DNA from: an uncultured Cetobacterium sp.
GTDB lineage: Bacteria; Fusobacteriota; Fusobacteriia; Fusobacteriales; Fusobacteriaceae
Direction of reading: 5' to 3'
Assembly (NCBI RefSeq): GCF_947072685.1
Contig: NZ_CAMTIK010000009.1
Span: 3,360 to 67,359, forward strand
DNA: 64,000 bases
Positions 3,854 through 22,137 of the stretch are shown here, one piece after another. Positions within the stretch are counted from its first letter, which is position 1. Each line of letters opens with the position of its first letter. The notes under the pieces are model-generated. The model did not search any database, had not been told where the DNA came from, and was given only the letters and a program-made list of their open reading frames with translations. The translations under genes and the position numbers were made by a program.

Positions 3854-3866
3854 TCTCTCTCCTTTC

Positions 3867-3897
3867 AAAAAAGGAGTATACTTTCGTACACTCCCTT
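3867..3897 (-). terminator. Intrinsic terminator after kamE
   Basis: Minus strand GGGAGTGTAC-GAAA-GTATACTCC followed by TTTTTT. Confidence 0.75.
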
Positions 3898-3905
3898 AAA
3901 TCAAA

Positions 3906-4694
3906 TTATTTTTTTATTCTTCTTTCTAGCTCTTGAACAGTGTACGACGCTACATCATCAGCATATGTTCCTGTCCCAAATCCAGCATCATATCCAAGCT
4001 CTTTAGCTAGTTCATGCGTTATTCTAGCCCCACCACAAACTACTAACATTTTATCCCTTAACCCTTCCGCCTCTAACATTTCAATCAACTCTACTAAATT
4101 TTTTATATGCACATCTTTTTGAGTAACTGTTTGTGAAACCAAAAGTACATCAGCATTTATCTCCAAAGCCTTAGCTATAAAATCTTCATTCAAAACTTGG
4201 CTTCCCATATTTAAGGCTTCAATCATCTCATATCTTTCTAATCCATAATGTCCAGCGTACCCTTTCATGTTCATAACAGCATCTATTCCCACAGTATGTG
4301 CATCTGTTCCTGTACTTGCTCCAAGAACAACTATTTTTCTTCCGATATGCTCCTTTACAAACTTATCAGTTTCCTCCATAGACCAAACTGTTGATTCCAC
4401 TTTAGGTACATATATTGTTTCGTAGTCCACTGTATGAGTACAACTCCCATAGCAATTAAAAAATGTAAATCCTTTTGTTAGCTCCTTATAATATGATACC
4501 TGCGGATTTTCAAATCCCATTTTTTTCATAAGTTGTTTTGCTGCTTCCACTCCCTCAGCTCCAGATGGTACTGGTAGTGTAAATGATAGATGTGTTTTTC
4601 CATCATTCATTGTATCTCCGTATGGCTTAACCGCTTTTAAATCTAGCGTTGTATCAAAACCTCTTTCTTCCATTGAATATAATCCACCACTCAT
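3906..4694 (-). CDS. kamE: Lysine 5,6-aminomutase beta subunit (B12-binding)
   Basis: KPYGDTMNDGK N-terminus, cobalamin motif DAHTVG, YGLERY PLP region, operon context. Confidence 0.95.
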   Translation of the reverse strand: MSGGLYSMEERGFDTTLDLKAVKPYGDTMNDGKTHLSFTLPVPSGAEGVEAAKQLMKKMGFENPQVSYYKELTKGFTFFNCYGSCTHTVDYETIYVPKVESTVWSMEETDKFVKEHIGRKIVVLGASTGTDAHTVGIDAVMNMKGYAGHYGLERYEMIEALNMGSQVLNEDFIAKALEINADVLLVSQTVTQKDVHIKNLVELIEMLEAEGLRDKMLVVCGGARITHELAKELGYDAGFGTGTYADDVASYTVQELERRIKK

Positions 4695-6253
4695 TATTTA
4701 CACCCTCCTAACATTTTCGGAATAAATAGATTCATGTAACTTGAACCTTTTTCAACAACTCCTGCCAATCCTTTTCCACCAGTTCTGCTTCTTTTTATAT
4801 CAGCAAAAGTTCCTTTTTCTAAAGAGTTAAACAATCCATCCGCAACCATTTTATCAAGTAAATTTACAGATTTATCTAAAACCTCTTTAGCTCTATTTTG
4901 AATCATTCCATTCTCTTTAAACTCTATTTCTGAACCTAAATCTCTCATGTTGTTAAATATATATCTTGCATTCTCGATTGCTAAATATCTATCAGACATA
5001 AATGGGGTGTGAATCGCCTCTGTCATCATTCCTAAAAGCTGTAATCCTTGTCCTGTCATAATAGCAACCTGATTAAACAATGCATCTTGTATGTGACCTT
5101 TAAAAACATTTCCTGTCATAAATTTTGTCGGTGGCATATATTTCAACGGTGCATTTGGGAAGATCTCTCTTGTCATCTGAGCTTGAGATAGTTCTAATAA
5201 AAATCCATTTTCCAAATCTGGATCAATTTCAAAAGCGTGACCTAGCCCCATTTGTTCTTCTGGTAATCCCGCCATAAATGCCAACTGCTCGTTAATTAAA
5301 TCTGATGCCAAAACTGTATGTGCATTCTCAACAGCATCTGCTGTTGTTAAATAGTTATCTTCACCTGTATTTATTATAACTCCAGCAAATCCATTTATCA
5401 CTCTCGAGAAAAATTGATCTACAAGTGTTCTTTGCATATTTATATCTCTAAAAAGTATTCCATACAATGCATCATTTAACATTACATCCAGCCTCTCTAG
5501 AGCTCCCATAGCTGCGATTTCCGGCATACAAAGACCCGAACAATAGTTGCATAATCTTATGTATCTTCCAACTTCCTCTCCAACTTCATCAAGGGCTTTT
5601 CTCATAATTCTAAAATTTTCTTGTGTTGCAAAAGTTCCACCAAAACCTTCTGTTGTAGCACCATAAGGTACATAATCCAATAAACTTTGTCCTGTTGTTC
5701 TGATCACAGCTATTATATCAGCTCCTTGCCTAGCTGCAGCTTGAGCCTGTATTACATCCTCATATATATTTCCTGTAGCAACTATAACATATAGATAAGG
5801 TTTTGGTCCCTCCCCTATTGTTTCTAAATATCTATCTCTTTGGTTTCTATTATTTTTTATTCTATCCACAACTCTATCTGCTATAACTTCAATTTTCTTT
5901 TGTGCGTCCTCTTTCGGATGCTGTTTAATTTTTGTTAAATCCAGTTCCCCAGAAGACACTTTTTCTGCTATTTCTTGAGGTGTTAATCCCGTTTCTATCA
6001 TTGTATTTCCTAAAAAATACATAACCCCTTCAGACAATACCCCTCTATCTTTAAGATGATCTACCACAACATTTGGTAAAGGTACTTCATCCTCATTTAT
6101 ACCATCTATCTCTAACAATCTACAAATAGTTCTCTCAACAGCCACTGTGGTATATGAATCCACAAACTTCTGAACATCTAATGCGATATCTTTCGCTAAA
6201 TTCCTAGCCTTATCAACCTTGTTAAAATCTAACCCCAACTTACTTTTAAACAT
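4694..6253 (-). CDS. kamD: Lysine 5,6-aminomutase alpha subunit
   Basis: VATGNIYED, AVIRTTGQSLLDY, NYCSGLCMPE, KYMPPTK motifs. Stop/start overlap with kamE. Confidence 0.95.
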   Translation of the reverse strand: MFKSKLGLDFNKVDKARNLAKDIALDVQKFVDSYTTVAVERTICRLLEIDGINEDEVPLPNVVVDHLKDRGVLSEGVMYFLGNTMIETGLTPQEIAEKVSSGELDLTKIKQHPKEDAQKKIEVIADRVVDRIKNNRNQRDRYLETIGEGPKPYLYVIVATGNIYEDVIQAQAAARQGADIIAVIRTTGQSLLDYVPYGATTEGFGGTFATQENFRIMRKALDEVGEEVGRYIRLCNYCSGLCMPEIAAMGALERLDVMLNDALYGILFRDINMQRTLVDQFFSRVINGFAGVIINTGEDNYLTTADAVENAHTVLASDLINEQLAFMAGLPEEQMGLGHAFEIDPDLENGFLLELSQAQMTREIFPNAPLKYMPPTKFMTGNVFKGHIQDALFNQVAIMTGQGLQLLGMMTEAIHTPFMSDRYLAIENARYIFNNMRDLGSEIEFKENGMIQNRAKEVLDKSVNLLDKMVADGLFNSLEKGTFADIKRSRTGGKGLAGVVEKGSSYMNLFIPKMLGGCK

Positions 6254-6264
6254 CCAATATCCTC

Positions 6265-7596
6265 CTATAAATATTTATATGATTCACTTATGATATCTTC
6301 ATCTATTTTCAATAGTTTTGCTATTGTCAATGCTTCTGCCGGAACATTATCATCTTCAACTTCAATCAAAGAATAATCTATGTAGTTTTCTATATTTTCA
6401 AATGTTACACCTTCATCTATCTCTGTTTTTTTTATTCCAGTGACTCTTAATTTTACAACATCGTTTCCAACTTTATTATAGTGAGTTGTAATAACAGATT
6501 CTATAAAATTTTTTTTGAGAATATTTATCACTCCTCTCAAAAGCGCCCTTCCTTCTTGAGGGTTTGTTGTTCTTGCGAGTTCATCTATCAGAATAAGAGG
6601 TTTTACACCTTTTTTTACTTTCTTTATAATACTATCGACCTCTAGCATCTCAGCTGCAAATGATGAGAGCCCATTCTCTAGAGATTGAAGATCCCCAATC
6701 AGAATACAGACCTCATCAACTATCAAGAGTTTCGCCTCTTGTGCTGGAACATAAAACCCCATTTGAGCCATCTTTTGAACTAATCCCAATGTCTTTAAAG
6801 TCAATGTCTTCCCTGACATATTTGCTCCTGTTATAATAGTAACTCCATTGTAAAGAGATATATCTATCTTTTGATAATCTTTATTTTTTTCCGCAAGTCC
6901 TTTCAAAACTTTAGGATTAAACATCCCTTTAATTTCAGTTCTTTCAGTAAAACTAGGTCTAACCAATCCTAATTTTAAAACTTGGTCAGCTTTAGCAAGT
7001 ATAAAATCTAAATAACCCAACCTTTTTACCGAACTCTTTAAAATTTGATTATAGTTTAATAATTTCCTACTGATAACCTTTCTTACATCATCTTCCAACT
7101 CTACTTCAGCTTCATATAACCTTTCATCCTTAGTTTTTTTTATCTCTTTTCTAATCTCGGACAACTCTATTGAGTAGGAGCTATATATATGAAAACTAGC
7201 TATTCTTATTTTATCTGGATCCAATATATCTATTACTTTTTCCAAATTCTGTGGGGCTAAAAAATCATATTCTATCCCTAAAATTTCATATATCTCTTGG
7301 GAGATCATGGAAAAAATTTTAATTTCAAAAAGTTCAATATCATCTAATATATAGCCATTACATAATCTTTCTATTGTAAAGCTTACATCTTTTAGGGAGC
7401 ATATTTTCCTCTTCAACTCTCTATATAGATTTGGTTTGCTTTCTAAGAGTGTAAGTGTTCTTTCTAAGTTCAAATACTCTTTTTCTAAAAAAATTTCATC
7501 TCTTGAAAACTTAACTTCTCTTACTGTTTTCTTACCTAATTTACTTACAATATCTAAGGTCTCAACTATGTAATCAAATCCTATTTTTTTAAACAT
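6265..7596 (-). CDS. kamC: MutS-like ATPase, aminomutase reactivation factor subunit
   Basis: MutS domain V motifs ITGANMSGKT, DELARTTNP, TTHY. No mismatch-binding domain. Lies between kamB and kamD. Confidence 0.85.
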   Translation of the reverse strand: MFKKIGFDYIVETLDIVSKLGKKTVREVKFSRDEIFLEKEYLNLERTLTLLESKPNLYRELKRKICSLKDVSFTIERLCNGYILDDIELFEIKIFSMISQEIYEILGIEYDFLAPQNLEKVIDILDPDKIRIASFHIYSSYSIELSEIRKEIKKTKDERLYEAEVELEDDVRKVISRKLLNYNQILKSSVKRLGYLDFILAKADQVLKLGLVRPSFTERTEIKGMFNPKVLKGLAEKNKDYQKIDISLYNGVTIITGANMSGKTLTLKTLGLVQKMAQMGFYVPAQEAKLLIVDEVCILIGDLQSLENGLSSFAAEMLEVDSIIKKVKKGVKPLILIDELARTTNPQEGRALLRGVINILKKNFIESVITTHYNKVGNDVVKLRVTGIKKTEIDEGVTFENIENYIDYSLIEVEDDNVPAEALTIAKLLKIDEDIISESYKYL

Positions 7597-8608
7597 CCGT
7601 CTCCTCCCTTAGATTTACAACTGGTATGTCTGTAAACTTTTCAATAGCTTTTATTAACTCCTTAGAATTTAAAATATGTCCTGTCGGTGCTATCGGATTG
7701 ATAGTAATTGCTATTAATTTAGTACTGAACAGTACTTTTAGAAAACCACCTCTTTTAAAAAATTTATTTAAAACTTCTTGAGAAACAAATATTTTTGTAA
7801 AATCTTTAACTATAATCTCTAAATATTTTACAAAACTTTGTTTTGACAAATTATCAATAAATCTCTCAGTTAAAACTCCAGTTATATACAACGAGCATCT
7901 CTCTTCAAAAATGTTTTTCTCTAGTTGTGAAAAATTTAAAATAGATTTTATTGGCAGTTTCTCGATTATTTCTTTCTCCCAAATCACTTTATAGATTCCA
8001 TCCTCTAAGTTTAAAAGTTTATTTCTCTTTTCATTCTCTAAAGAATCCAACTTCAAAAGCTCTATAATATGCCTAGTTTTCTTTACTATCTCATTCAAAT
8101 TTAACGATATTGCCGCACCCGTTGATAAAACTATTCCTTCTGTAATAATAGGAGACCCTACACTCAAACGAGATAGGGCCCCATCAACTATTACTGTATC
8201 CACGCCTTTTTCTAAAATTTCATCTATTACTTTCTTTACCCAACTACTATTTGAAGGTCCTGACAAAAGAACTGTTCCCTCTCCTATTGCTCTAGCAATA
8301 ACCAATCTACCAAGAGCTGTTGATTGCTCACTCACTCCCAATATTTCAGCTTGAAACTTTTTCTTTTTATAGTGTTTCTCACTAGTCGCAAATAGCATCC
8401 CTTCAAATATTGTTACTTCTGGTTTTGATGTTGCTGTGACAATATCTGTTATCTCCCCATCTATCCCAATAGAGGTAGTTCCTACAACAACACCAATATT
8501 TTTTAATCTTTTTAAGATATAGTTCATCGTTTCAGTTTTTCCAACATTTTTTTCCAAACCGATTGTGGCAATACTTCTATATTTTTTTATTTCATTTATA
8601 AAAGGCAT
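7589..8608 (-). CDS. kamB: KamB, partner of KamC
   Basis: GLEKNVGKT, TSIG.DGE, VDGALSR motifs. Located between kamA and the MutS-like gene. Confidence 0.8.
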   Translation of the reverse strand: MPFINEIKKYRSIATIGLEKNVGKTETMNYILKRLKNIGVVVGTTSIGIDGEITDIVTATSKPEVTIFEGMLFATSEKHYKKKKFQAEILGVSEQSTALGRLVIARAIGEGTVLLSGPSNSSWVKKVIDEILEKGVDTVIVDGALSRLSVGSPIITEGIVLSTGAAISLNLNEIVKKTRHIIELLKLDSLENEKRNKLLNLEDGIYKVIWEKEIIEKLPIKSILNFSQLEKNIFEERCSLYITGVLTERFIDNLSKQSFVKYLEIIVKDFTKIFVSQEVLNKFFKRGGFLKVLFSTKLIAITINPIAPTGHILNSKELIKAIEKFTDIPVVNLREETDV

Positions 8609-8632
8609 GGTTTTCTCCTTTCAAGTCAACTC

Positions 8633-9874
8633 TTAGTGTGCATTCCTTTGTTTTCTATCCAACTGTCTTGGCTCTAAAGTTTCTTCACAACCACTAATCA
8701 ATCCTGCTACTCCCACTTGCTTTTTCTTAACTTCTCCCTTGCAAACATCACATTCACAAGAATTTACATAGTTTGTAGGCTGTGTGTATGTTGTTATAAC
8801 TCCCTCAAAGTTTCTCAAAATTACTTTATCTGGTGATTGGGAGATTATATAATTTGGCATTACAGGAGTTTTTCCTCCTCCTCCTGGAGCATCCACAACA
8901 AATGTAGGAACTGCATATCCTGACGTATGCCCTCTTAACCCTTCTATGATTTCAATCCCTTTAGACACAGGTGTTCGGAAGTGTTCAATTCCCATAGATA
9001 AGTCACATTGATAAATATAGTATGGTCTAACTCTCATTTTAACTAAATCATGTACCAATGTTTTCATTATATGCACACAATCATTTACTCCTTTCAATAA
9101 AACCGATTGATTTCCTAATGGAATTCCTGCATCAGCTAACATATTACAAGCCTTTATTGCTTCTGGTGTTATCTCTTTAGAGTGGTTAAAATGAGTATTT
9201 AACCAAATTGGGTGATATTTTTTTAACATATTACAAAGTTCTGGAGTTATTCTTTGAGGCATAACAACTGGAGTTCTCGATCCTATTCTTACAATCTCAA
9301 CATGAGGAATCTCTCTAAGTTTACTGATGATATACTCTAACTTATCGTCTGATAGAAGCAGTGGATCTCCTCCAGATAAAAGTACATCTCTCACCTGTGG
9401 TGTATTTCTGATATATTCGATAGCTTTTTCTATTCTATCCATAGGAACTGCTTGATCTGTTTGACCTGCAAATCTTCTTCTAGTGCAGTGTCTGCAGTAC
9501 ATCGAACACATATCTGTAACTAATAGAAGCACTCTATCTGGATATCTATGAGTTAATCCAGGTACTGGAGAATCTCCATCTTCATGTAATGGATCTAGCT
9601 GGTCCGCAGCAGATCTATGTAGCTCATTTATAGATGGTACTGCTTGCATTCTAACTGGACATTTTGGATCATCAGGATTCATAATACTTAAATAATATGG
9701 TGTAATCCCCATTCTAATTGTTGCAAGGGATTTTTTTATTCCCTCTCTCTCCTCGTCCGTTAAAGCTATTAAGCTTTCCAATTGCTCTAGTGTTTCTATT
9801 CTATTAGCAACCTGCCATTTCCAGTCATTCCATTTCTCATCCGTTACATTAAATTTTTCTCTCAAATTTATCAT
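8633..9874 (-). CDS. kamA: Lysine 2,3-aminomutase (radical SAM/PLP)
   Basis: CSMYCRHC radical-SAM motif, RHCTRRR, DAPGGGGK PLP lysine, C-terminal CxCxxC zinc site. Confidence 0.97.
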   Translation of the reverse strand: MINLREKFNVTDEKWNDWKWQVANRIETLEQLESLIALTDEEREGIKKSLATIRMGITPYYLSIMNPDDPKCPVRMQAVPSINELHRSAADQLDPLHEDGDSPVPGLTHRYPDRVLLLVTDMCSMYCRHCTRRRFAGQTDQAVPMDRIEKAIEYIRNTPQVRDVLLSGGDPLLLSDDKLEYIISKLREIPHVEIVRIGSRTPVVMPQRITPELCNMLKKYHPIWLNTHFNHSKEITPEAIKACNMLADAGIPLGNQSVLLKGVNDCVHIMKTLVHDLVKMRVRPYYIYQCDLSMGIEHFRTPVSKGIEIIEGLRGHTSGYAVPTFVVDAPGGGGKTPVMPNYIISQSPDKVILRNFEGVITTYTQPTNYVNSCECDVCKGEVKKKQVGVAGLISGCEETLEPRQLDRKQRNAH

Positions 9875-9908
9875 CAGTAAACTCCTCCAAATTTTTCTAT
9901 TATTTTAA

Positions 9909-10943
9909 TTACACGTATAACTTTTCAAATAACTCTCTAATGTCTTTTGATTCTCTAATAATTTCTAAAGTTAAATTCGCATGCCCTTTTGTATATCCGT
10001 TTCCAACTATCATACTCACATCTTTTCCTACACCTTCTGCACCTAATGCAGCTTTTGTGAATGATGTTGCCATAGAGAAGAAATAAACTACTCCGTCATC
10101 TTTTGTGATTAGTATTGAAGACATCTCTGTCCCAGGAACATTGACGTTATTTATTACAACATCACATAGTTCTCCATTTGTGATCTCATTTATTTTATTA
10201 TATATTTCTACTGGTTTTGTTGCATCTCCAACTAAAACAATATGAGCTAATCCTAAATCTCTTATTCTCTGAGCATTGGCCTCCGAATATTCAAATACTA
10301 TTACTTTTCCTGTAGTCCCAACATTTTTCATAGCTTGATAGCAACAAAGTATCCCAGATTTTCCTCCACCACCGATAATACAAACGGTATCCCCTTCTTT
10401 TACAAGTTTTTCAACTTGTGCTGGAGCTCCTGCTACATCAAGAGCTGCCAGTGCTAATTTTTCTGGAATATCTTTTGGTAGAACCGCATATATACCGCTC
10501 TCAAATAGTACCGCTTTTGCATCCACATCCACTTGATCATTTGAAATATTTATTTTTTTAATTTCATTTATTTTTAAAGGTGTCAATGACAGCGATACTA
10601 ATGTTGCTATTTTATCTCCAACTTTTAAAGTTTTGTCTGGAAAATCTGAACCAATTTTTTCAATCGTTCCTATCAACATCCCTCCTGAACCTGTTACAGG
10701 ATTTTGCATTTTACCTCTTTCTGCAACTATTCCTTCTATCATTTCTGCCATTTTTTTCTCGTCTCTATTACAAGCTTCTTTTATCTGTGTAAAACTAGCT
10801 GAATCAATATTTAAAGTTTGGACATCTATTAAAACCTCATTAGACATTATTTTCATGTCATTAGATATTTTTAATGCTCCCTGTGGAAGTGATCCTATTG
10901 GTTCAATTACTCTATGTGTTCCAAATTTGCAACCTTTTTTCAT
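9909..10943 (-). CDS. kdd: L-erythro-3,5-diaminohexanoate dehydrogenase
   Basis: GTHRVIEP, LNIDSASF, QNPVTGSGGM, LDVAGAPAQ, GGGGKSG motifs. Confidence 0.93.
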   Translation of the reverse strand: MKKGCKFGTHRVIEPIGSLPQGALKISNDMKIMSNEVLIDVQTLNIDSASFTQIKEACNRDEKKMAEMIEGIVAERGKMQNPVTGSGGMLIGTIEKIGSDFPDKTLKVGDKIATLVSLSLTPLKINEIKKINISNDQVDVDAKAVLFESGIYAVLPKDIPEKLALAALDVAGAPAQVEKLVKEGDTVCIIGGGGKSGILCCYQAMKNVGTTGKVIVFEYSEANAQRIRDLGLAHIVLVGDATKPVEIYNKINEITNGELCDVVINNVNVPGTEMSSILITKDDGVVYFFSMATSFTKAALGAEGVGKDVSMIVGNGYTKGHANLTLEIIRESKDIRELFEKLYV

Positions 10944-10953
10944 AATACCCTCC

Positions 10954-11772
10954 TCAATTTAACCCTAGTATTTTTCTTGCCTCAGTTGGAGTAGCTATAT
11001 CTCTTCCAAACTCTTTTGCAAGTCTTACAACTTTTTCAACTAATTCTCCATTGCTCTTAGCTATAACACCTTTAGCTAAATAGATGTTATCTTCAAATCC
11101 AACTCTTACATGACCTCCAGATATTATAGAAGCCACTGCAAGAGTGAATTCAAATTTTCCTATCCCTGCGACCGAATAAGTAGATCCATAAGGTAAGCTT
11201 TCTTTTAAAAATAAGAAGTCTCTTAAATCTCCTGATATTCCACCATTTACTCCCATTACAAAACTAAAGTGAATTGGTTCTTTAATAAACCCTTTTTTAG
11301 ATAGCCTTATTGCCATATCTATCATTGATTTATCAAATACTTCAACCTCTGGCTTAACATCCATATCTATCATCTTTTTCCCAAACTCTTTTATCATATT
11401 TTCAGTGTTTACAAAGACCTCGTCTCCACCAAAATTTAAAGTACCACAATCTAGTGTCGCCATCTCTGGTTTTAACTCTATTGGTTCTAACCGCTCAGCT
11501 GAACTCATCCCTACAGATCCCCCTGTAGATGGCTGAACAATTACGTCCGGACATTTTTCTTTTATAGCCTTTATGCACTCTTCATATCTCTGTTTTTTTT
11601 GAGTTGGAGTCCCATCATCCTCCCTGACATGAAGATGTATAATACTTGCCCCCGCTTTATACGCACTGTAAGCTTCTTTTGCTATCTCTTGAACTGTATA
11701 GGGAACAGCTGGGTTGTGTTCTTTTGTTACCTCTGCACCACAGATTGCGGCTGTTATTATAAGTTTTTCCAT
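10954..11772 (-). CDS. kce: 3-keto-5-aminohexanoate cleavage enzyme
   Basis: LIITAAICGAE, IIHLHVR, QPSTGG, RVGFEDN motifs (BKACE family). Confidence 0.93.
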   Translation of the reverse strand: MEKLIITAAICGAEVTKEHNPAVPYTVQEIAKEAYSAYKAGASIIHLHVREDDGTPTQKKQRYEECIKAIKEKCPDVIVQPSTGGSVGMSSAERLEPIELKPEMATLDCGTLNFGGDEVFVNTENMIKEFGKKMIDMDVKPEVEVFDKSMIDMAIRLSKKGFIKEPIHFSFVMGVNGGISGDLRDFLFLKESLPYGSTYSVAGIGKFEFTLAVASIISGGHVRVGFEDNIYLAKGVIAKSNGELVEKVVRLAKEFGRDIATPTEARKILGLN

Positions 11773-11775
11773 CTT

Positions 11776-12162
11776 TTACCCCTTTCTCTGAACTGCTTTT
11801 GGAACAACACAAGTCCCAACTGCCTTACATACAATGATAGGTTCTTCTAAAAAATCAGCTGCAGAATCACATATATCTGCTCTTGGAACAATCACTTTTC
11901 TAGCTTCAAAATACATCGCTCTGGATGTATTCCCTACTTTTGTAATCTCTCCAACAACCTCTAAATAATCCCCTGCATAGACAGGTGCCATGAATTCAAC
12001 ATCACTGTAAGCTTTAAATAAACCCTCATCTCCATCATGTTTAATTAGTAGCTCTGTTGCTACATCTCCAAATAACTGTAATATTCTTGCACCATCTACT
12101 AAATTTCCACCATAATGAGCATCTGCTGAGCTCATTCTTAATCTTATCATTGACTTTGTCAT
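11776..12162 (-). CDS. kal: 3-aminobutyryl-CoA ammonia lyase
   Basis: Hotdog fold: [27 protein letters not shown]. Confidence 0.93.
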
Positions 12163-12190
12163 AACTCCTCTCCCTTTTATCTTTATTTTA

Positions 12191-13687
12191 TTATACTGTT
12201 TCTTCTGCTTCCATAGTTATTTCAATCTCTTCATTTTCTCCAACCAATCTTACATCTGGTTCACTTGGTAAAGCAAATCTAGGTATTAACCTATCCAGTC
12301 CTGTCAGCGTTAAAATTAAAATACTACCTACAGCTATGTAGGCCATAAAATTAAATTTTATAATACTCATTGCTGTAAAACTTGCTAACGGGTATACAGC
12401 ATTTGCTATTCCCAAATAAAATCCAATATAAACATGCCAAGGAATAAGTTGTGAACCAAAAACTCCAAGAGCATCACTAAATGTAGCATTTCTAAGTCTC
12501 AATGTCTCAATATCTTTTGGACTTCCCTTAACATTTTTCTCAACAAGTTCTTTTATAATTGGACCTATGGTTACTATCTGAGCCATTTCATCAGCTAATG
12601 CTGCATTCCCCAAGACAGATAAAACTCCATTGTAAAACATAAGTTGTCTAACATTTCCAGATATTCTTTTAATTAAAATGGATATTGGTCTAAATGCATC
12701 CATTGTTTTCATTACTCCACCAAATGCTGCAACCCACATCATCATAACAATAACCCATGATCCTGCACCTTCGAATCCTGAATAGATTAAATCTAAGAAT
12801 GCTGAAGTACTCTCTACTGTTCCTGCAATCATCCCAAATACATACGATGCAAAAATTCCTAAAAATAAGCACAACAATGTATTTATTCCTTTAAACGCTG
12901 AAATAAGAACTAATATTAGAGGAATAACCATATAGTATGGAACTCCACTTTTAACTTGATTTAGTAATGCCACTGCACTTTCTCTCTTCTCAGCTAAAGC
13001 GGCCCAAGCCGACTCAGGTATTTGATTAATAGCCTCTACCGGACTTCCAACTTCCGTTGGTAATCCCATCATCACGCTAGCAATGTAAAATGTAATCACA
13101 GCACATACAAGTACTGATGCTGACCAAAAACCTTGGTGTCTTATTCTTTTTACAACCTCTACTCTTTGAATACCAGAACTAACAATTGTTGTATCTGATA
13201 TTAAACCTATATTATCCCCAAAACATGCTCCCCCCGCTATTGCTGCAAGTGTTAGATACATATCTCCTTGTACAATATGGTTTAACCACAAAAATATTGG
13301 TGCACAAGCTGCAAATGTTCCCCAACTTGTTCCAGTCGCTATAGATAGTATCGATGTTACAATAACTCCTACAACTGCAACTGTTCTAGCTGTCAATCCA
13401 AATCCTAAAGCTATATTAATTATTGAAGCTCCTACTCCCGTAGACATAAATGCTTCAGCCATTGCATAAGCCATCATTAAGATAAAGAATGCTATTTGCA
13501 TCTCTCTTGCATTTTTAATACAAGAGTCAATAATATCACTTATCTTCTTTTTTGCTACAAGTGATGCCACCATTGCTGCATAAACTGTTGCTAAAGGTGC
13601 TGCTAATAATGCGTCATACCCACTCATCATCAGTCCTGCCAAAACTAAAACTGGACTAAGCTTTATTATCGCTGTTACCGATCCCAT
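12191..13687 (-). CDS. NhaC-family transporter (probable lysine uptake)
   Basis: ATGTSWGT and [15 protein letters not shown] NhaC motifs. First gene of the lysine operon. Substrate inferred from context. Confidence 0.85.
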
Positions 13688-13735
13688 ATTTTCCTCCTAG
13701 AATGTTTATTTTCTCATAACCTTTTCAAGTAGGAT

Positions 13736-13751
13736 GTAAGTGAGCGCTTAC
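13736..13751. promoter_or_regulatory. Candidate repressor operator, site 1 (leader of lysine operon)
   Basis: Imperfect palindrome GTAAGTGAGCGCTTAC about 20 bp downstream of the -10. Matches 16481..16496 at 11/16. Confidence 0.6.
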
Positions 13752-13771
13752 TTTAGTTTTGTCACTAGCTA

Positions 13772-13800
13772 TATATACCTCACACCTTTTTTAAAGTCAA
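13772..13800 (-). promoter_or_regulatory. Promoter of the lysine-fermentation operon
   Basis: TTGACT-17-TATATA on the minus strand. Confidence 0.65.
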
Positions 13801-13976
13801 TAGCTTTTTTTATTTTTTAAAAATTTAAAGTTTGTTTTTAGTACTAAAACGCTCTATTACAGACATAATTAGTAACTAATTTTTTATTTATCAAATAAAA
13901 TAAATTTGACAAATTTATAACATATGAGGTAATAAGTGTGGCGTCATAGATAAACACATATACAGGAGGAGTAAAA

Positions 13977-14756
13977 ATGGTATTTAAAAACCTTTTAATT
14001 AGTATAGAAGACCGAATCTGTACTGTTAAAATCAACAGACCTGAAGCTTTAAACGCTTTAAATGAGGAAACTTACAAAGAAATTCACAAATGTTTTTCTA
14101 ATCTAGAAAAAAATGATACAATTGATGTCATTATTTTAACTGGTGAAGGAAGAGCCTTTGTTGCAGGTGCTGATATCTCTTTTATGAAAAATTTGGATAC
14201 TAAACACGCTAAGGAGTTTGGAATACTTGGAACAAACTCTTTTAATGCTGTCGAGAATATTAACAAAGTTGTAATCGCTGTTATAAACGGATTTGCCCTT
14301 GGTGGAGGATGCGAACTTGCTATGGCTTGTGATATCAGAATTGCATCTGACAAGGCAAAGCTTGGTCAACCAGAAGTGACTTTAGGTATAACACCTGGTT
14401 CAGGTGGAACACAGAGGCTTCCTCGAATAGTTGGGGTCGCAAAAGCCAAGGAACTCATCTATACGGGAAATATTATTGGGGCTGAAGAAGCTCTGAGTAT
14501 TGGATTGGTTAATCAAGTGGTGCCCCATGAAAATCTTATGGAATATTCTTTAGATATGGCAAAAAAAATAAGTTCCAATGCTAAATTAGCTGTACAGTAT
14601 TCTAAAGAAGCTATAGATAAAGGCCTTCAAGTCGATGAAGCAACCTCTATGTTTATTGAAAGTAGTCTATTTGGACTTTGCTTTTCAACACACGATCAAA
14701 AAGAAGGGATGAATGCATTCTTAGAAAAAAGAAAAGCTCATTTCACAAATAATTAA
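13977..14756 (+). CDS. crt: Crotonase (enoyl-CoA hydratase)
   Basis: NRPEALNALN, FVAGADI, ALGGGCEL, GQPEV.LG..PG.GGTQRL motifs. Confidence 0.93.
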   Translation: MVFKNLLISIEDRICTVKINRPEALNALNEETYKEIHKCFSNLEKNDTIDVIILTGEGRAFVAGADISFMKNLDTKHAKEFGILGTNSFNAVENINKVVIAVINGFALGGGCELAMACDIRIASDKAKLGQPEVTLGITPGSGGTQRLPRIVGVAKAKELIYTGNIIGAEEALSIGLVNQVVPHENLMEYSLDMAKKISSNAKLAVQYSKEAIDKGLQVDEATSMFIESSLFGLCFSTHDQKEGMNAFLEKRKAHFTNN

Positions 14757-14793
14757 CTTTATTAAAAAAAACATATAAAATTAGGAGGTTATT

Positions 14794-15633
14794 ATGAAAG
14801 TATTTATTGTTGGTGCTGGAGTTATGGCTAGTGGAATTGCCCAGGTTTTTGCAGCAGGTGGTCATGAAGTTTTAATCACAGATGTCAATAACGATATTCT
14901 TGAAAAAGCAAAAAATGGTTTTGTTAAAAATCTATCAAAATTAGTTGAAAAAGTTAAAATTACAGAGGATAGAAAAAATGAAATCTTATCAAAATTGAAT
15001 GCTACTCCAGATTTAAATGATGCCAAAGATGCAGATTTAGTTATTGAAGCAGTTTCGGAAAAAATGGCTATTAAAAAAGAATTATTTGGCAAGCTGGATA
15101 CTATTTGTGAAGAAAAAACTATTTTTGCAACAAATACATCCTCTCTTTCTATAACAGAGATTGCACTATCTACAAAAAGACCCGAAAAAGTTATTGGAAT
15201 GCACTTTTTCAACCCTGCTCCTGTTATGAAATTAATTGAAATTATAAAGGGATACACCACAAGCCAAGAGGTTCATGAGACTATATTAGAACTGACTAAA
15301 ACTTTAGGGAAAGAGCCTGTTTCTTGTGAAGAAGCACCTGGATTTGTTGTAAATAGAATTTTAATTCCAATGGTAAATGAGGCCATCGGTATTTTAGCGG
15401 ATGGAGTTGCCACCACAGAAGATATTGATAACGCTATGAAATACGGGGCTAATCACCCTATTGGTCCTTTAGCACTAGGAGATTTAATCGGACTCGATGT
15501 GGTTTTAGCTATTATGGATGTTTTAGCTTCTGAGTTTGGAGATTCTAAGTATAGAGCACATCCTCTTCTTAAAAAAATGGTTCGAGCTGGAAAACTAGGT
15601 AGAAAAAATGGTGAAGGATTCTATAAATATTAA
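14794..15633 (+). CDS. hbd: 3-hydroxybutyryl-CoA dehydrogenase
   Basis: GAGVMASG, ATNTSSLS, GMHFFNP, PGFVVNR, HPIGPL motifs. Confidence 0.94.
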   Translation: MKVFIVGAGVMASGIAQVFAAGGHEVLITDVNNDILEKAKNGFVKNLSKLVEKVKITEDRKNEILSKLNATPDLNDAKDADLVIEAVSEKMAIKKELFGKLDTICEEKTIFATNTSSLSITEIALSTKRPEKVIGMHFFNPAPVMKLIEIIKGYTTSQEVHETILELTKTLGKEPVSCEEAPGFVVNRILIPMVNEAIGILADGVATTEDIDNAMKYGANHPIGPLALGDLIGLDVVLAIMDVLASEFGDSKYRAHPLLKKMVRAGKLGRKNGEGFYKY

Positions 15634-15642
15634 TAACTAAGT

Positions 15643-16259: not shown

Positions 16260-16480
16260 TTGTACTTCCCCCTTAGTTTAAAAACATATGTTATCACAAA
16301 ATATACTTTACTTTTGACCCATTTGTCAATTTTTTTTATATATTTTTATTTTTTTTATAATTTTTTATCTCTCCCATCAATTAGGTGTTTTTAAAGTTTT
16401 TTTTGGATTTTAAAAAAATGTTTTATATCTTGCTATTGACAAATTAATTATCTATGAGGTATATATTCATACTGGTAAAG

Positions 16481-16496
16481 GCAAGTATTCACTTGC
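16481..16496. promoter_or_regulatory. Candidate repressor operator, site 2 (leader of atoD operon)
   Basis: Imperfect palindrome GCAAGTATTCACTTGC between the TTGACA promoter (16436) and the atoD SD. Confidence 0.6.
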
Positions 16497-16521
16497 AAAT
16501 TAGAATGGAGGAGTAAAAAAT

Positions 16522-17172
16522 ATGAAAAAATTGGTCTCTGTTGATTTTGCAGCATCACTTATCAAAGATGGTTCTTCTCTTATGACTGGGGGATTTTTAA
16601 AGTGTGGTTCTCCTAAAGAGGTTATTGAAAAATTACTTGAAAATGGAACTAAAGATCTAACACTTATTGCTAATGATACTAGTTTCCCAGAATTTGAAAG
16701 AGGTAAATTAGTTGTTAACAAAAGAATTAAGAAAGCTATTGTTTCTCACATTGGTACTAACCCTGAAACTGGAAAACAAATGCATTCTGGAGAAATGGAG
16801 GTTGAACTTGTCCCTCAAGGAACTCTTGCTGAAAGAATTCGTGCAGCCGGAGCTGGGCTTGGTGGAATTTTGACTCCTACAGGTATTGGAACAGTTGTCC
16901 AAGAAGGAAAACAAATTATTGAAGTTGATGGGCATAAATATCTTCTTGAAAAACCATTAAAAGCAGATATTGCTCTTATATACGGAAGTAAGGTTGATTC
17001 TTTTGGTAATATCTCTTTCTTTGGATCTACTCGAAATTTCAATACTGTTATGGCTACTGCTGCTGATATTGTAATTGTAGAAGCAGATGAAATTGTTGAG
17101 GGATGTTTAGACCCTAATGAAGTTGTTATCCCTGGAATCTTTGTTGATTACATAGTTAAGGGAGGAAAATAA
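16522..17172 (+). CDS. atoD: Acetate/butyrate CoA-transferase alpha subunit
   Basis: [37 protein letters not shown] motifs. Confidence 0.93.
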
Positions 17173-17173
17173 A

Positions 17174-17839
17174 ATGGAACTTACTAAAGAAAGAGTTAGA
17201 GAGATTATCGCTAGAAGAGTTGCTAGAGAGTTTAAAGATGGAGATGTTATCAACCTTGGAATTGGTTTACCTACTGAAGTGGCCAACTATATTCCAGAAT
17301 CAATACAGGTGGCTCTACAATCTGAAAATGGTTTAATTGGTATGGGACCAACCCCTTGTGAAGCTGAGTCCGATTGCAGAATCGCAAATGCTGGTGGCTC
17401 CCTTGTGACTATCACTCCAGGTGGATGTTTCTTTGATAGTTTTACATCATTTGGAATTATTCGTGGTGGACACGTTGATGCCACTGTTCTTGGAGCTCTA
17501 CAGGTGGATGAAAAAGGAAATCTTGCAAATTGGATGGTTCCTGGAAAAATGGTTCCTGGAATGGGTGGGGCTATGGATCTGGTTGTTGGAGCTAAAAAAG
17601 TTATAATTGCTATGGAACATACTGCCAAAGGAAGTCCTAAAATTCTAAAAAACTGCACTCTCCCTTTAACTGCAGCTAACGAGGTCAATCTAATTGTAAC
17701 TGAAAAAGGAGTTCTTGAGGTTACTGAAAAAGGATTACTTCTTAAAGAGATCAGTCCTTTTTCATCAGTTGAAGATATAATAGCTACCACTGAGGCCACT
17801 ATTATTGTTGACGATAATTTAAAAACTATGGAAGTTTAA
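17174..17839 (+). CDS. atoA: Acetate/butyrate CoA-transferase beta subunit
   Basis: NLGIGLPT, catalytic [13 protein letters not shown] motifs. Confidence 0.93.
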
Positions 17840-17858
17840 TTTTAAGGGAGGATATTAA

Positions 17859-19064
17859 ATGAAAAAAGTCTATATTGTTGCTGCTAAAAGGACATCTATT
17901 GGTTCGTTTTTAGGATCTTTAAGCAAAGTTTCTCCCAGTGAAATGGCTGGTTCTGTTATCAAAAATATTATTGAAGAAACTAAAATCAACCCTTCCAATT
18001 TAGATGAAGTTATTATTGGAAATGTATTATCTGCTGGACATGCTCAGGGGATTGGTAGACAATCAGCTATTAAAGGTGGTGTCCCTTTCACAGTTCCCGC
18101 ATATTCTATCAACATTATTTGTGGAAGTGGTATGAAAGCTATTATGACCGCTTATCAGGGAATTAAGTCTGGCGAAAGTTCTTTAATTTTAGCTGGCGGT
18201 ACTGAATCAATGTCACAAGCTCCACTTCTTTTAAATAGTAATATTAGAACTGGTATAAAAATGGGGGATTCTACCGCTAGAGATCATATGATTTTGGATG
18301 CCTTAACCGATGCTTTCCACGGTATTCATATGGGAATAACAGCTGAAAATATTGCAGAAAAACATGGGATTAATCGAGAAGAACAAGATAAGTTTTCTAT
18401 TACTTCTCAAATCAAAGCTATTTCTGCTATTGATTCTGGAAGATTTAAAGATGAAATTGTTCCTATTAAAATTTTAGACAGAAAAACCTCTACAATTGTA
18501 GATACAGATGAATATCCCAATAGAAAAACAAATTTAGAAAAATTAGGAACTTTAAGACCTGCATTTAAAAAAGATGGATCTGTTACAGCTGGAAACTCTT
18601 CTGGAATAAATGATGGTGCTGCTGTTCTTCTTTTAGCTTCTGAGGAAGCGATTAAAAAACATAATCTTAAACCACTTGCAGAAATAATTGGGGTTGGACA
18701 AGGTGGGGTTGATCCTTTAGTTATGGGCTTAGGACCTGTTCCGGCAATTAAAAATGTTTTGGATAAAACCGGATTAACACTTGAACAAATGGACTTATTG
18801 GAACTTAACGAAGCTTTTGCTGTTCAATCTCTTGGAGTTATAAAAGAAATCTCTGAGATGTATGCAATTGACCCAAAATGGTTTGGCGATAGAACTAATG
18901 TCAACGGTGGGGCAATTGCTCTAGGACACCCTGTTGGAGCTAGTGGTGCTAGAATTACTACAACTTTAATCCATGAAATGAAAAAAAGAGGATCCAAATA
19001 TGGATTGGCTAGTCTTTGTATCGGTGGTGGAATGGGTACAGCTATAATTATTAAAAATATTTAA
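17859..19064 (+). CDS. thlA: Acetyl-CoA acetyltransferase (thiolase)
   Basis: CGSGM, ELNEAFA, GHPVGASG, CIGGGMG motifs. Confidence 0.93.
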   Translation: MKKVYIVAAKRTSIGSFLGSLSKVSPSEMAGSVIKNIIEETKINPSNLDEVIIGNVLSAGHAQGIGRQSAIKGGVPFTVPAYSINIICGSGMKAIMTAYQGIKSGESSLILAGGTESMSQAPLLLNSNIRTGIKMGDSTARDHMILDALTDAFHGIHMGITAENIAEKHGINREEQDKFSITSQIKAISAIDSGRFKDEIVPIKILDRKTSTIVDTDEYPNRKTNLEKLGTLRPAFKKDGSVTAGNSSGINDGAAVLLLASEEAIKKHNLKPLAEIIGVGQGGVDPLVMGLGPVPAIKNVLDKTGLTLEQMDLLELNEAFAVQSLGVIKEISEMYAIDPKWFGDRTNVNGGAIALGHPVGASGARITTTLIHEMKKRGSKYGLASLCIGGGMGTAIIIKNI

Positions 19065-19088
19065 TAACTTAAAATTAGGAGGAAACAA

Positions 19089-20234
19089 ATGGATTTTACA
19101 TTAACTAAATCGCAAGAACTTTTTAAGCAAATGATCACTACTTTTGCTGAAAATGAAGTGAAACCTCTTGCTGCTGAAATCGATGAAGAGGAGAGATTTC
19201 CTGTAGAAACAGTTGAAAAAATGAGTAAAATTGGTATGATGGGAATCACTATTCCTAAACAATATGGCGGGGCTGGTGGCGATCAAATCATGTACACCAT
19301 GGCTGTTGAAGAACTTTCAAAAGTCTGCGGGACTACAGGGGTTATTCTTTCCGCACATACTTCTTTGGGGGTTGCTCCTATTTTAGAATTTGGAACTGAC
19401 AATCAAAAACAAAAATTTCTTCCTAAAATGGCTTCTGGTGAATGGATTGGAGCTTTTGGATTAACTGAACCAAATGCTGGAACTGATGCTGCCGGACAGC
19501 AGACAACAGCTTGGTTTGATGAAAAAACTGATCAGTGGGTATTAAATGGATCTAAAATATTTATAACTAATGCTGGTTATGCACATGTTTATATTATATT
19601 CGCTATGACGGATAAATCTTTAGGTTTAAAAGGTATCACAGCATTTATTGTTGAATCCGATACACTCGGTTTCTCTGTTGGTAAAAAAGAGAAAAAACTT
19701 GGAATTAAGGGATCGGCTACTTGTGAATTGATATTTGAAGATTGCAGAATCCCAAAAGATAATCTTCTTGGAGCTGTCGGAAGAGGGTTTAAAATAGCGA
19801 TGATGACTCTTGATGGAGGAAGAATTGGTATTGCTGCTCAAGCTTTAGGTATTGCTGGTGGAGCTTTGGATGAGACTATCAAATATGTTTGTGAAAGAAA
19901 ACAGTTTGGAAAACCTCTTTCAAAATTTCAAAACACTCAGTTCCAAATAGCTGATATGTTTGCTAAAGTGGAGGCATCTAAACATCTTGTCTATAAAGCT
20001 GCTTGGAAAAAATCTAGAAAGGAAAATTACTCTTTAGATGCAGCAACTGCAAAGTTATTTGCCGCCGAAGCTGCTATGGACGTCACAACCAAAGCCGTAC
20101 AACTGCATGGTGGATATGGATATACTCGAGAGTATCCTGTTGAGAGAATGATGAGAGATGCTAAAATTACTGAAATCTACGAAGGAACTTCAGAAGTGCA
20201 AAGAATGGTTATTGCGGGATCATTACTAAAGTAA
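19089..20234 (+). CDS. bcd: Butyryl-CoA dehydrogenase (electron-bifurcating with EtfAB)
   Basis: FGLTEPNAGTDA, NGSKIFITN, ERMMRDAKITEIYEGT motifs. Followed by etfB and etfA. Confidence 0.93.
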   Translation: MDFTLTKSQELFKQMITTFAENEVKPLAAEIDEEERFPVETVEKMSKIGMMGITIPKQYGGAGGDQIMYTMAVEELSKVCGTTGVILSAHTSLGVAPILEFGTDNQKQKFLPKMASGEWIGAFGLTEPNAGTDAAGQQTTAWFDEKTDQWVLNGSKIFITNAGYAHVYIIFAMTDKSLGLKGITAFIVESDTLGFSVGKKEKKLGIKGSATCELIFEDCRIPKDNLLGAVGRGFKIAMMTLDGGRIGIAAQALGIAGGALDETIKYVCERKQFGKPLSKFQNTQFQIADMFAKVEASKHLVYKAAWKKSRKENYSLDAATAKLFAAEAAMDVTTKAVQLHGGYGYTREYPVERMMRDAKITEIYEGTSEVQRMVIAGSLLK

Positions 20235-20252
20235 ATTGGGAGGATTAACAAA

Positions 20253-21038
20253 ATGAATATAGTTGTGTGTATAAAACAAGTACCTGATACTACAGAGATT
20301 AGACTAGACCCTGTTAAAGGAACACTTATAAGAGATGGTGTTCCTAGCATAATAAATCCTGATGACAAAGGTGGATTAGAAGAAGCTTTAAAATTAAAAG
20401 ATCAATTTGGAGCTCATATAACAGTAATCACTATGGGACCACCACAAGCTGAAGCTGCTCTTAGAGAAGCTATTGCTATGGGGGTAGACAGAGCAATTCT
20501 TTTAACAGATAGAAAGTTTGCTGGAGCGGATACTCTAGCTACATCGCACGCTCTTTCAGCTGCTCTTTCTGAGTTAGATTATGATTTAATAATTGCAGGA
20601 AGACAAGCCATTGATGGAGATACTGCTCAGGTGGGACCACAGATAGCAGAATTTTTAAACCTTCCTCAAATCACATATGTAAAAGATATCAAATTTGATG
20701 GAACAGATACATTTGAAGTTAAAAGAGTTACAGAGGAAGGATATATGTTACTTCAGGTTGCAACCCCTTGTCTTATGACTATTTTAGCAGAAGCTAACAA
20801 ACCTAGGTATATGAATGTTAAAGATATCGTAGATGCATTTAACAAAGAAGTAGAAGTTTGGGGAGTAGATAGATTATCTGATCTGGATGAAACAAAGCTT
20901 GGTTTAAACGGTTCTCCTACAAAGGTTAAGAAATCATTTACAAAAGGTGTTAAATCTGTTGGACAACTTTATGAAGTTGACCCTCAAGAGGCAGCAAAAA
21001 TTATAGTTGAAAAATTAAAAGAAAAATTTATAATCTAA
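20253..21038 (+). CDS. etfB: Electron transfer flavoprotein beta subunit
   Basis: VCIKQVPD, FAGADT.ATS, GRQAIDGDTAQVGP motifs. Confidence 0.95.
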   Translation: MNIVVCIKQVPDTTEIRLDPVKGTLIRDGVPSIINPDDKGGLEEALKLKDQFGAHITVITMGPPQAEAALREAIAMGVDRAILLTDRKFAGADTLATSHALSAALSELDYDLIIAGRQAIDGDTAQVGPQIAEFLNLPQITYVKDIKFDGTDTFEVKRVTEEGYMLLQVATPCLMTILAEANKPRYMNVKDIVDAFNKEVEVWGVDRLSDLDETKLGLNGSPTKVKKSFTKGVKSVGQLYEVDPQEAAKIIVEKLKEKFII

Positions 21039-21063
21039 TATTTTAAAACAAGAGGAGAATATC

Positions 21064-22071
21064 ATGAACTTAAATGAATATAAAGGGATCCTTGTTTTTG
21101 CTGAGCAAAGAGAGGGAGTACTACAAAACGTTGGATTGGAATTGATTGGAAAAGGAAAAGAACTAGCTCAATCTTTAAACGAAAAGGTAACAGCTGTTCT
21201 TCTAGGATATAATATAGCCCATCTCGCAAAAGATTTAATCGCATATGGTGCTGATGAAGTAGTGGTTGTAGATTCTAAAGAGTTATCCATCTATGACACT
21301 GAAGCTTATACTCAAGCTTTCAGTTCAATTATAAACAATAAAAAACCTGAAATTGTTCTTATTGGAGCAACAACTCTAGGAAGAGATTTAGGTCCTAGAA
21401 TATCTTCGAGATGTGAAACTGGACTTACAGCTGACTGTACAATGCTAGAAATAGGAGAAAACAAAGAGTTATTGATGACAAGACCCGCTTTTGGTGGAAA
21501 TTTAATGGCTACTATTATATGCCCTGATCATAGACCTCAGATGTCAACAGTTAGACCTGGAGTTATGACAAGATTAACAAAAGATGAAAAAAAACAAGGG
21601 AATATTATTGACTTTAAAATAAATTTTGATCACTCAAAAATGAAAGTTAAGGTTTTAAATATCATAAAAGAAGCTAAAGCTAAAGTGGATATAACAGAAG
21701 CTAAAATTCTTGTTTCTGGAGGAAGAGGTGTTGGAGCTCAATCAGGCTTTGATAATTTAGAGCTTTTAGCTAATGAATTAGGTGGTGTTGCTTCTGCATC
21801 AAGAGCTCTTGTTGATGCCGGAGTGGTTAATCATGACAGACAAGTTGGACAAACAGGAAAAACTGTTAGACCAGATGTTTACTTTGCGTTTGGAATCTCT
21901 GGGGCTATCCAACATTTAGCTGGTATGGAAGAATCCGAATACATCATCGCCATTAACAAAGATAAATCAGCTCCTATTTTTGGCTCTTCTGATTTAGGTC
22001 TGGTAACCGATTTAGGAAAAACTATTCCTTACTTAATTGAAGAGATTAGAAAAGCTAAAGCTGAAAAATAA
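21064..22071 (+). CDS. etfA: Electron transfer flavoprotein alpha subunit
   Basis: GLTADCT, RPAFGGN, QVGQTGKTV, GISGAIQH motifs. Confidence 0.95.
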   Translation: MNLNEYKGILVFAEQREGVLQNVGLELIGKGKELAQSLNEKVTAVLLGYNIAHLAKDLIAYGADEVVVVDSKELSIYDTEAYTQAFSSIINNKKPEIVLIGATTLGRDLGPRISSRCETGLTADCTMLEIGENKELLMTRPAFGGNLMATIICPDHRPQMSTVRPGVMTRLTKDEKKQGNIIDFKINFDHSKMKVKVLNIIKEAKAKVDITEAKILVSGGRGVGAQSGFDNLELLANELGGVASASRALVDAGVVNHDRQVGQTGKTVRPDVYFAFGISGAIQHLAGMEESEYIIAINKDKSAPIFGSSDLGLVTDLGKTIPYLIEEIRKAKAEK

Positions 22072-22078
22072 TATTTTC

Positions 22079-22113
22079 AAAAAAAACAAAGGATACACCT
22101 CCTTTGTTTTTTT
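22079..22113 (+). terminator. Terminator between etfA and atoE
   Basis: AAAAAAAACAAAGGA-TACACC-TCCTTTGTTTTTTT. Confidence 0.7.
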
Positions 22114-22137
22114 AAATAAATTTTGGGGGTTATTCAA

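Follow-up and report, generated by a model that had tools for sequence, protein, structure and literature searches.

Are the two halves of the lysine-to-butyrate route of Cetobacterium switched by one and the same regulator? This question is raised by a stretch of 64,000 nucleotides (the window) from an uncultured member of the genus, one that is dominant in the gut of freshwater fish. Of the four routes to butyrate, one is the fermentation of lysine. In the window, two similar 16-bp palindromes stand in the leaders of two operons, one for lysine fermentation and one beginning with atoD, and a gene for a TetR-family protein of 189 amino acids lies between these operons. From the genome comparisons described below, both 16-mers are probably DNA operators of this one TetR-family repressor.

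The host genome is that of a Cetobacterium (2.15 Mb, 31% G+C), and C. somerae ATCC BAA-474 is among the closest loci to the window. The features of the locus are listed in Table 1. The lysine operon contains, in this order, the genes for an NhaC-family transporter, kal, kce, kdd, kamA, kamB, kamC, kamD, kamE and a PhzF-family gene, which are 3-37 nt apart or overlap. Kal, Kce, Kdd, lysine 2,3-aminomutase, KamB, KamC and both subunits (alpha and beta) of lysine 5,6-aminomutase scored above the cut-offs of their NCBIfam equivalog models. The ato operon, whose ORFs are 1-51 nt apart, encodes a CoA-transferase, a thiolase, butyryl-CoA dehydrogenase with Etf and a member of a short-chain fatty acid transporter family. 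Here the NCBIfam models for CoA-transferase subunits A and B and for the thiolase subfamily were matched above cut-off, and Bcd and Etf were assigned via best matches that score under the equivalog cut-offs. All enzymes of the Kam/Kdd/Kce/Kal pathway are thus present together with Ato, Bcd-Etf and Thl, which identifies the first operon as a lysine-fermentation operon.

The lysine route ends with Bcd-Etf and butyryl-CoA:acetoacetate CoA-transferase (Ato), the acetoacetate coming from an earlier step of the same route, and Ato, Bcd-Etf and Thl complete it (PMC3994512). Because these terminal steps need Ato and Bcd-Etf, the lysine operon and the ato operon belong to one pathway. The crt and hbd genes between them are those of the acetyl-CoA route and are not needed for the lysine route; their promoter is conserved in the alignment of Cetobacterium leaders. 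A coupling of lysine breakdown to the handling of acetoacetate and butyryl-CoA, proposed for acetoacetate and crotonyl-CoA by the sequence-only reading, therefore fits the pathway: Ato, Bcd-Etf and Thl finish the lysine route, and crt-hbd has no site.

Table 1. Features of the lysine and ato loci in the window (positions count from the first nucleotide of the window).
Feature	Position	Strand	Remarks
Lysine-fermentation operon	3029..13687	-	From NCBIfam and ORF coordinates
Operator 1 (candidate), lysine-operon leader	13736..13751	-	GTAAGCGCTCACTTAC, arms GTAAG/CTTAC
Predicted lysine-operon promoter	13772..13800	-	-35 TTGACT (13795-13800), 17-nt spacer, TGAGG-TATATA -10 (13772-13777)
crt-hbd (crotonase, 3-hydroxybutyryl-CoA dehydrogenase)	13977..15633	+	Between the two operons with candidate operators; own promoter; no operator
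Bidirectional terminator	15644-15691		Downstream of crt-hbd
TetR-family gene, 189 aa	15690..16259	-	Proposed binder of both operators
Predicted tetR promoter	16300..16329	-	TTGACA-18-TATATT; 11/12 consensus match; conserved in the genus
Predicted atoD promoter	16436..16465	+	-35 TTGACA (16436-16441), 18-nt spacer, TGAGG-TATATA -10 (16460-16465)
Operator 2 (candidate), atoD leader	16481..16496	+	GCAAGTATTCACTTGC
atoD-atoA-thl-bcd-etfB-etfA-atoE operon	16522..23526	+	From NCBIfam matches

Both 16-mers are found where the sequence-only reading had placed them (operator 1 reads GTAAGTGAGCGCTTAC on the plus strand, the reverse complement of GTAAGCGCTCACTTAC). In transcript orientation they agree at 11 of 16 positions, and the five differences (positions 2, 6, 7, 8 and 15) are all transitions, as had been noted. 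Two outer pairs had been said to co-vary so that the palindrome is kept. This is true of positions 2/15, which are T-A in one site and C-G in the other; positions 1/16 are constant, so there is one such pair, not two. Operator 1 begins 20 nt past the -10, and 48 nt separate its end from the ATG at 13687. Operator 2 starts 15 nt past the -10 and ends 25 nt before the ATG of atoD. The claimed spacing of 15-20 bp is thus right for both.

The lysine and atoD promoters are predictions, read from the sequence by eye and by conservation. The lysine-operon promoter is invariant in 10 genomes, and the atoD promoter falls in the conserved block cTATTGAC...TGAGGTATATAT-CATACTG. A consensus promoter scan listed the tetR promoter and missed these two, because the last base of their -10 is A and not T. 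We also considered the TGAGGTATATAT block, which is common to both promoters, as a special shared site. This was rejected since it is a general -10 form of the genome, where TGAGGTATA(A/T)AT is found at many promoter-like sites; the TGAGG in front of both -10 boxes is likewise common to many promoters of this genome. In the matrix scans the tetR promoter has no copy of the operator, the nearest one being about 150 bp upstream, and no further sites were found; the reservation made earlier, that neither the TetR nor the crt promoter carries a copy, thus holds for this genome. The -35 of tetR sits in another conserved palindrome, TTGAC-N6-GTCAA (TTGACCCATTTGTCAA, 16314-16329), which is kept in 10 of 11 genomes and has the 5-6-5 geometry of the operator with a different sequence.

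An 11/16 match between two AT-rich spacers of about 280 bp is in itself unremarkable. The pattern GYAAG-N6-CTTRC has two matches in the window against 0.13 expected, a number to be read with the pattern's derivation from those same two sites in mind. Genome-wide it is not enriched, with three matches in 2.15 Mb and about 2-4 expected from an estimate based on composition. As the genome count of this loose pattern is close to the expectation from composition, the pair alone is weak evidence, and the significance of the sites rests on the comparison with other genomes, not on the pair itself. We did not accept the third match in the genome (G000:C27:5081) as an operator, since it forms the 5' hairpin of a conserved sRNA-like unit, with a loop of 4 nt in most relatives. 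This unit, which lies outside the window (locus L073, G000:C27:~5000-5110, minus strand), is about 110 nt long and stands just after a 2-oxoacid:ferredoxin oxidoreductase operon. It runs from a separate promoter of the TGTATAAT type to an intrinsic terminator and can be aligned across 11 Cetobacterium genomes; Rfam gave no match for it. A third pattern match in the genomes G003 and G002 was likewise not taken as an operator. From its sequence we read it as the terminator stem (GTAAGC-TTTT-GCTTGC) of a purine-riboswitch-like leader upstream of an ORF of about 480 codons (L177, G003:C5:~11100-11310, and L169, G002:C42), which matches the loose pattern by chance. The exact 16-mer of this stem was not found in the window's genome, where the homologous region on contig C25 aligns with 74% identity over the ORF part of the query.

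The same gene block is found in 10 other Cetobacterium genomes, and both 16-mers are kept in all of them. In the spacer between tetR and atoD three blocks are conserved, namely the tetR promoter, the atoD promoter and the 16-mer, and across the 11 genomes the atoD 16-mer forms a conserved island with variable flanks. The atoD site reads GCAAGTATGTACTTGC in six genomes, GCAAGCATGTACTTGC in G007, GCAAGTATACACTTGC in G013 and G019, and GCAAGTGCTCACTTGC in G002. GCAAGTATGTACTTGC and GCAAGTGCTCACTTGC are perfect palindromes of the 7-2-7 type (GCAAGTA-TG-TACTTGC and GCAAGTG-CT-CACTTGC), between which positions 7 and 10 have changed as a pair (G..C in G002, A..T in G020 and others). The paired change at 7/10 fits a dimeric DNA-binding protein and not a hairpin, in which the loop would be 2 nt. 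The G019 genome might be mistaken for a natural tetR deletion, an interpretation that we rejected, as a run of N interrupts the gene.

The lysine site reads GTAAGC(G/A)CTCACTTAC in nine congeners and GTAAGCGCTCACTTGC in G002. In G002 the lysine site and the atoD site are identical at 14 of 16 positions, so that the two site types represent one class. From the -35 to about +45 the leader of the lysine operon (window 13700-13800) is nearly invariant across the genus, far more so than the atoD leader. Since this applies to the whole leader, the conservation of the 16-mer in it is not specific, and a constraint beyond the 16-mer acts on the lysine leader. Another conserved block, at 13840-13865 of the window (minus-strand reading TGTCTGTAATAG ... 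TTTTAGTAC), is kept in 10 genomes. It lies halfway from the lysine promoter to the divergent crt promoter, and a second regulator of one or both may act there.

Beyond the genus, full-length orthologues of the TetR protein (27-34% identity) were found in Propionigenium maris, Psychrilyobacter, Fusobacteriaceae UBA2433, Izemoplasmatales and Bacillota MAGs. Their genes lie directly upstream of atoD-atoA in all loci but one (L100), mostly with atoE or thl next. Among the orthologue loci with atoD alongside, all but one have the 16-mer before atoD at the threshold used. In eight listed loci it stands 36-73 nt before the mapped atoD start, either over a -35-like TTGCTT or right behind TATAAT. Pattern scans of two of these genomes gave a single genome-wide match in G035 and three in G036, and every one falls in the tetR-ato locus. 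Most relatives have an operator at their own tetR promoter, unlike the tetR of the window.

The association extends to much more distant TetR genes. The recognition helix of the protein is NEVTIFR, and a locus search seeded on this helix also returned TetR genes that are alike only in the first 50-60 residues. With the motif taken as GYAAGY-N4-RCTTRC and one mismatch allowed, it occurs within 160 bp upstream of the tetR start in 39 of the 69 loci outside Fusobacteriaceae that share the helix-turn-helix, against a background of 0.012 per 165-bp window. When copies just behind the gene are counted as well, 46 of 63 loci with the helix NE[VI]TIFR carry the motif, where about three are expected; of the loci with another helix none of two does. 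The palindrome of this helix class, GCAAGY-N4-RCTTGC, lies about 20-110 bp upstream of the tetR matches (loci L099-L167), which include Methanobacteriaceae, Thermoplasmatota, Gemmatimonadota, Fibrobacteria, Chloroflexota, Spirochaetes and Actinomycetota; GCAAGTACGTACTTGC and GCAAGTGATCACTTGC are among the perfect foreign palindromes. The neighbouring genes differ from locus to locus (outer-membrane efflux proteins (OEP), ABC transporters, an enoyl-CoA reductase, a radical SAM enzyme), as do the effector domains. The TetR helix is the only common factor among the 46 motif-bearing foreign loci.

On balance we lean towards the view that the NE[VI]TIFR module reads GCAAGY-N4-RCTTGC from Methanobacteriaceae and Thermoplasmatota to Gemmatimonadota, Fibrobacteria, Chloroflexota, Bacillota and Fusobacteriota, with unrelated effectors and targets. 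The host genome has four TetR genes, and the protein at 15690-16259 is the only one in the genome with the NEVTIFR helix; the other three genes have no operator-like site in the matrix scan. That this TetR, encoded between the two operons, is the likely binder had been surmised before. The comparative genomics argues for this assignment, with the 16-mer at orthologous tetR-atoDA loci across families and phyla, the palindrome beside same-helix TetR genes of both bacteria and archaea, and the helix in one TetR of four.

An independent weight matrix was built from 34 distinct foreign sites only. With this matrix the atoD site (23.8 bits) and the lysine site (20.0 bits) rank first and second in 2.15 Mb. 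The next matches have 17.7 bits, inside an ORF according to the ORF map, and 16.0 bits, which is the hairpin of the sRNA-like unit. The test is not fully blind, because the foreign training sites were chosen by a degenerate consensus derived from the Cetobacterium sites. This uniqueness in the genome, taken together with the retention of both sites in the 10 congeneric genomes, supports the proposal that the two operons share an operator. The foreign sites prefer C/G at positions 2/15; the lysine site has T/A there and imperfect inner arms, and it may be a weak site.

The protein itself is a regular member of the TetR family. Residues 7-53 match TetR_N (PF00440) with 3.4e-9 and 36.8 bits against a cut-off of 24, and the AlphaFold model (pLDDT 83.6; 10 helices) is all-helical with the two-domain TetR fold. 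A fold search with this model gave 167 PDB matches at E <= 0.001, and all matches listed are TetR-family proteins. FasR, which is an acyl-CoA sensor, was the top fold match (structures 6o6p/6o6n with C20-CoA; TM-score 0.6-0.7, 12-13% identity), and B. subtilis FadR was also listed. TM-scores of 0.6-0.7 and identities of 12-20%, as seen among the fold matches, are however generic TetR similarity, and hence these matches do not identify a ligand. The best sequence match in the PDB (3e-6) covers residues 2-98 only; for the C-terminal effector domain the Pfam and PDB searches gave no family and no close solved relative. Thus the PDB sequence and fold searches yield generic TetR similarity only. 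The protein also falls outside the FadR and PsrA models, with 22.6 bits against a cut-off of 200 for NF053878 (Bacillus FadR) and 35.7 against 300 for PsrA.

Could the palindromes act as RNA rather than as protein-bound DNA, i. e. as small 5'-UTR hairpins that affect the stability or translation of both mRNAs? Both 16-mers lie within the predicted transcripts, and hairpins are predicted for them (-3.7 and -6.8 kcal/mol, z -2.2 and -3.8). At the sites with unequal arms (the lysine site of G002, the ato sites of G035, G026 and G036), the sense strand has a U-G pair and not C-A, and the third match of the loose pattern in the genome is indeed the 5' hairpin of the sRNA-like unit. Yet the hairpins of the 16-mers are weak and distant from the ribosome-binding sites, with no sequestration, and symmetry is maintained at positions 7/10, which are unable to pair in a hairpin. 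In loci of the Propionigenium type the site overlaps a -35-like hexamer and so would not be transcribed, in several genera it falls within the promoter or upstream of it, in most phyla the motif stands upstream of tetR genes in either orientation, and an Rfam search of 13500-16700 gave no family, riboswitch or known leader. A role as RNA is therefore highly improbable. It is also very unlikely that the sites, though genuine operators, serve some other regulator while the local TetR controls something else, or atoD only. In favour of such a regulator, the genes for TetR, Ato and lysine fermentation stay together as a single block in Cetobacterium, so that presence and absence cannot separate TetR from another linked factor, and the conserved block at 13840-13865 indicates that other factors act in the lysine/crt spacer. 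This is opposed by the foreign loci, which have different neighbours and only the same-helix TetR gene in common, and by the lack of such a site at the other three TetR genes of the genome.

The remaining alternative concerns the lysine side alone. The atoD site could be a genuine TetR operator and the match in the lysine leader a chance look-alike within a sequence conserved for other reasons, in which case the operons would not be co-regulated. Footprinting is uninformative in the lysine leader, which is conserved throughout, the site scores lower than that of atoD, the loose pattern is not enriched genome-wide, and the lysine operon of G026 has no such site. Against this, the lysine site ranks second in the 2.15-Mb genome under a matrix built without it. 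It is promoter-proximal in a spacer of about 290 bp that lies 2.7 kb from the regulator, for which we estimate a chance of about 1e-4 to 1e-3 from the density of matrix matches, and the copy in G002 is almost the atoD operator of the same genome. We thus consider a look-alike unlikely and prefer to regard both 16-mers as operators of the local TetR.

If both sites are operators of this protein, a TetR dimer would bind the palindrome GYAAGYR-NN-YRCTTRC. From the predicted starts the sites would extend from about +9 to +24 (atoD) and from about +14 to +29 (lysine), with centres about 16 and 21 nt downstream, and bound TetR would block initiation or early elongation at both promoters. The TetR family acts mostly by ligand-released repression. 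Together with the repressor-type positions of the sites, this habit of the family leads us to propose joint repression of both operons and their joint induction by a metabolite of the pathway. A small molecule made during lysine fermentation would release the repressor, with acetoacetate, acetoacetyl-CoA or another short acyl-CoA as candidates, and the release would turn on the whole lysine-to-butyrate route together: from the first operon lysine uptake and conversion to acetoacetate and crotonyl-CoA, from the second Bcd-Etf, butyryl-CoA:acetoacetate CoA-transferase and thiolase. The binding itself, its repressing and not activating effect, the site positions with respect to the starts and the inducer are all inferred. 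The ancestral link to the ato genes points to acetoacetate or acetoacetyl-CoA as the inducer; with acetoacetate a positive feedback loop would arise, since Kce produces it. One may also speculate that the lysine operator, with T/A at 2/15 and the lower score, is released first.

How might the lysine operon have come under this control? The G026 genome has a tetR-ato locus nearly identical to that of Propionigenium maris and a complete lysine operon elsewhere. An atoDA paralogue heads this lysine operon (L186, G026:C3:226500-246000; atoD-atoA-kal-kce-kdd-kamA-kamB-kamC-kamD-kamE), and a second atoDA-atoE set stands behind TetR, away from the lysine operon. Nothing operator-like was found within the 19.5 kb surrounding this operon. 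The regions with kce in G036 and G035 likewise have no operator nearby; one match of 16.1 bits in G036 falls in the kce match itself. The lysine operon of G026 without operator suggests that TetR, operator and atoDA are the older unit. The best reading of these comparisons is that this unit is old and found in several phyla and that the operator in the lysine leader is a Cetobacterium-specific addition. Cetobacterium would then have brought the lysine genes, crt-hbd and tetR together with an enlarged ato operon in a block of 21 kb, and a second operator would have arisen in the lysine leader. The lysine-to-butyrate block of 21 kb (3029-23526, kamE ... atoE with tetR) behaves as one variable module: about half of the Cetobacterium species genomes that were sampled have it, and in the others it was not found. 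In G002 there is no crt-hbd between tetR and the transporter gene.

With TetR/QacR-type repressors (TetR-tetO) the proposed system shares the TetR_N helix-turn-helix, the all-helical two-domain fold and a gene that adjoins its targets, as well as, by prediction, a 16-bp palindromic operator at promoter-proximal positions. It differs in that the effector domain has no Pfam family and the tetR promoter has no operator of its own; we know of no characterised TetR member with this operator sequence. TetR proteins over genes of CoA-thioester metabolism are also found in FadR of Bacillus subtilis, FasR of Mycobacterium tuberculosis and FadR(Sa) of Sulfolobus acidocaldarius. The Sulfolobus protein represses a cluster of 30 kb via four sites with a 16-bp dyad motif (PMC6449355). 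The layout of such acyl-CoA-responsive regulators, with one regulator and few operators for one cluster, is the closest to the one proposed here. In contrast to this group, the targets in Cetobacterium are lysine fermentation and short-chain CoA-transfer and not beta-oxidation, and the similarity in fold is generic.

In E. coli, AtoS/AtoC (AtoSC) is a two-component system that activates the sigma-54 promoter of atoDAEB. The operon is of the same kind (acetoacetate/short-chain acyl CoA-transferase, AtoE-family transporter, thiolase) and presumably metabolite-responsive in both organisms. The Cetobacterium regulator, however, is a one-component TetR protein, proposed to act as a repressor at sigma-70-like promoters, and has no homology to AtoSC. 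The nucleoid-occlusion factor SlmA recognises a 12-bp site, GTGAGTACTCAC, whose half-site GTGAGT resembles GYAAGT. SlmA also gave a weak PDB sequence match over the helix-turn-helix and a fold match (4gct). On the NCBIfam SlmA model, however, the protein has 25 bits against a cut-off of 120, and no functional relation is implied. In the literature we found no description of the motif, of this regulator or of a TetR regulator of ato genes, and no lysine-fermentation regulator described in Fusobacteriota. As a switch, a TetR repressor acting through palindromic operators would be nothing unusual, but we know of no description of this particular regulator-operator pair.

For Cetobacterium, control of both operons by one repressor would account for the joint switching-on of the two halves of the pathway, uptake and deamination in one and CoA-transfer and redox steps in the other. 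The same model would explain why crt-hbd, which lies between the two operons and belongs to the acetyl-CoA route, is left out. With two sites in 2.15 Mb the pair of operator and regulator seems specific, and it is compact; given knowledge of the inducer, it could therefore be used as a sensor part. If the association of helix and palindrome is true as a rule, the regulons of hundreds of uncharacterised TetR proteins, archaeal ones included, could be readable directly from sequence. Cetobacterium would then show how such a helix module captures a second operon, here that of lysine fermentation, by the gain of a single operator.
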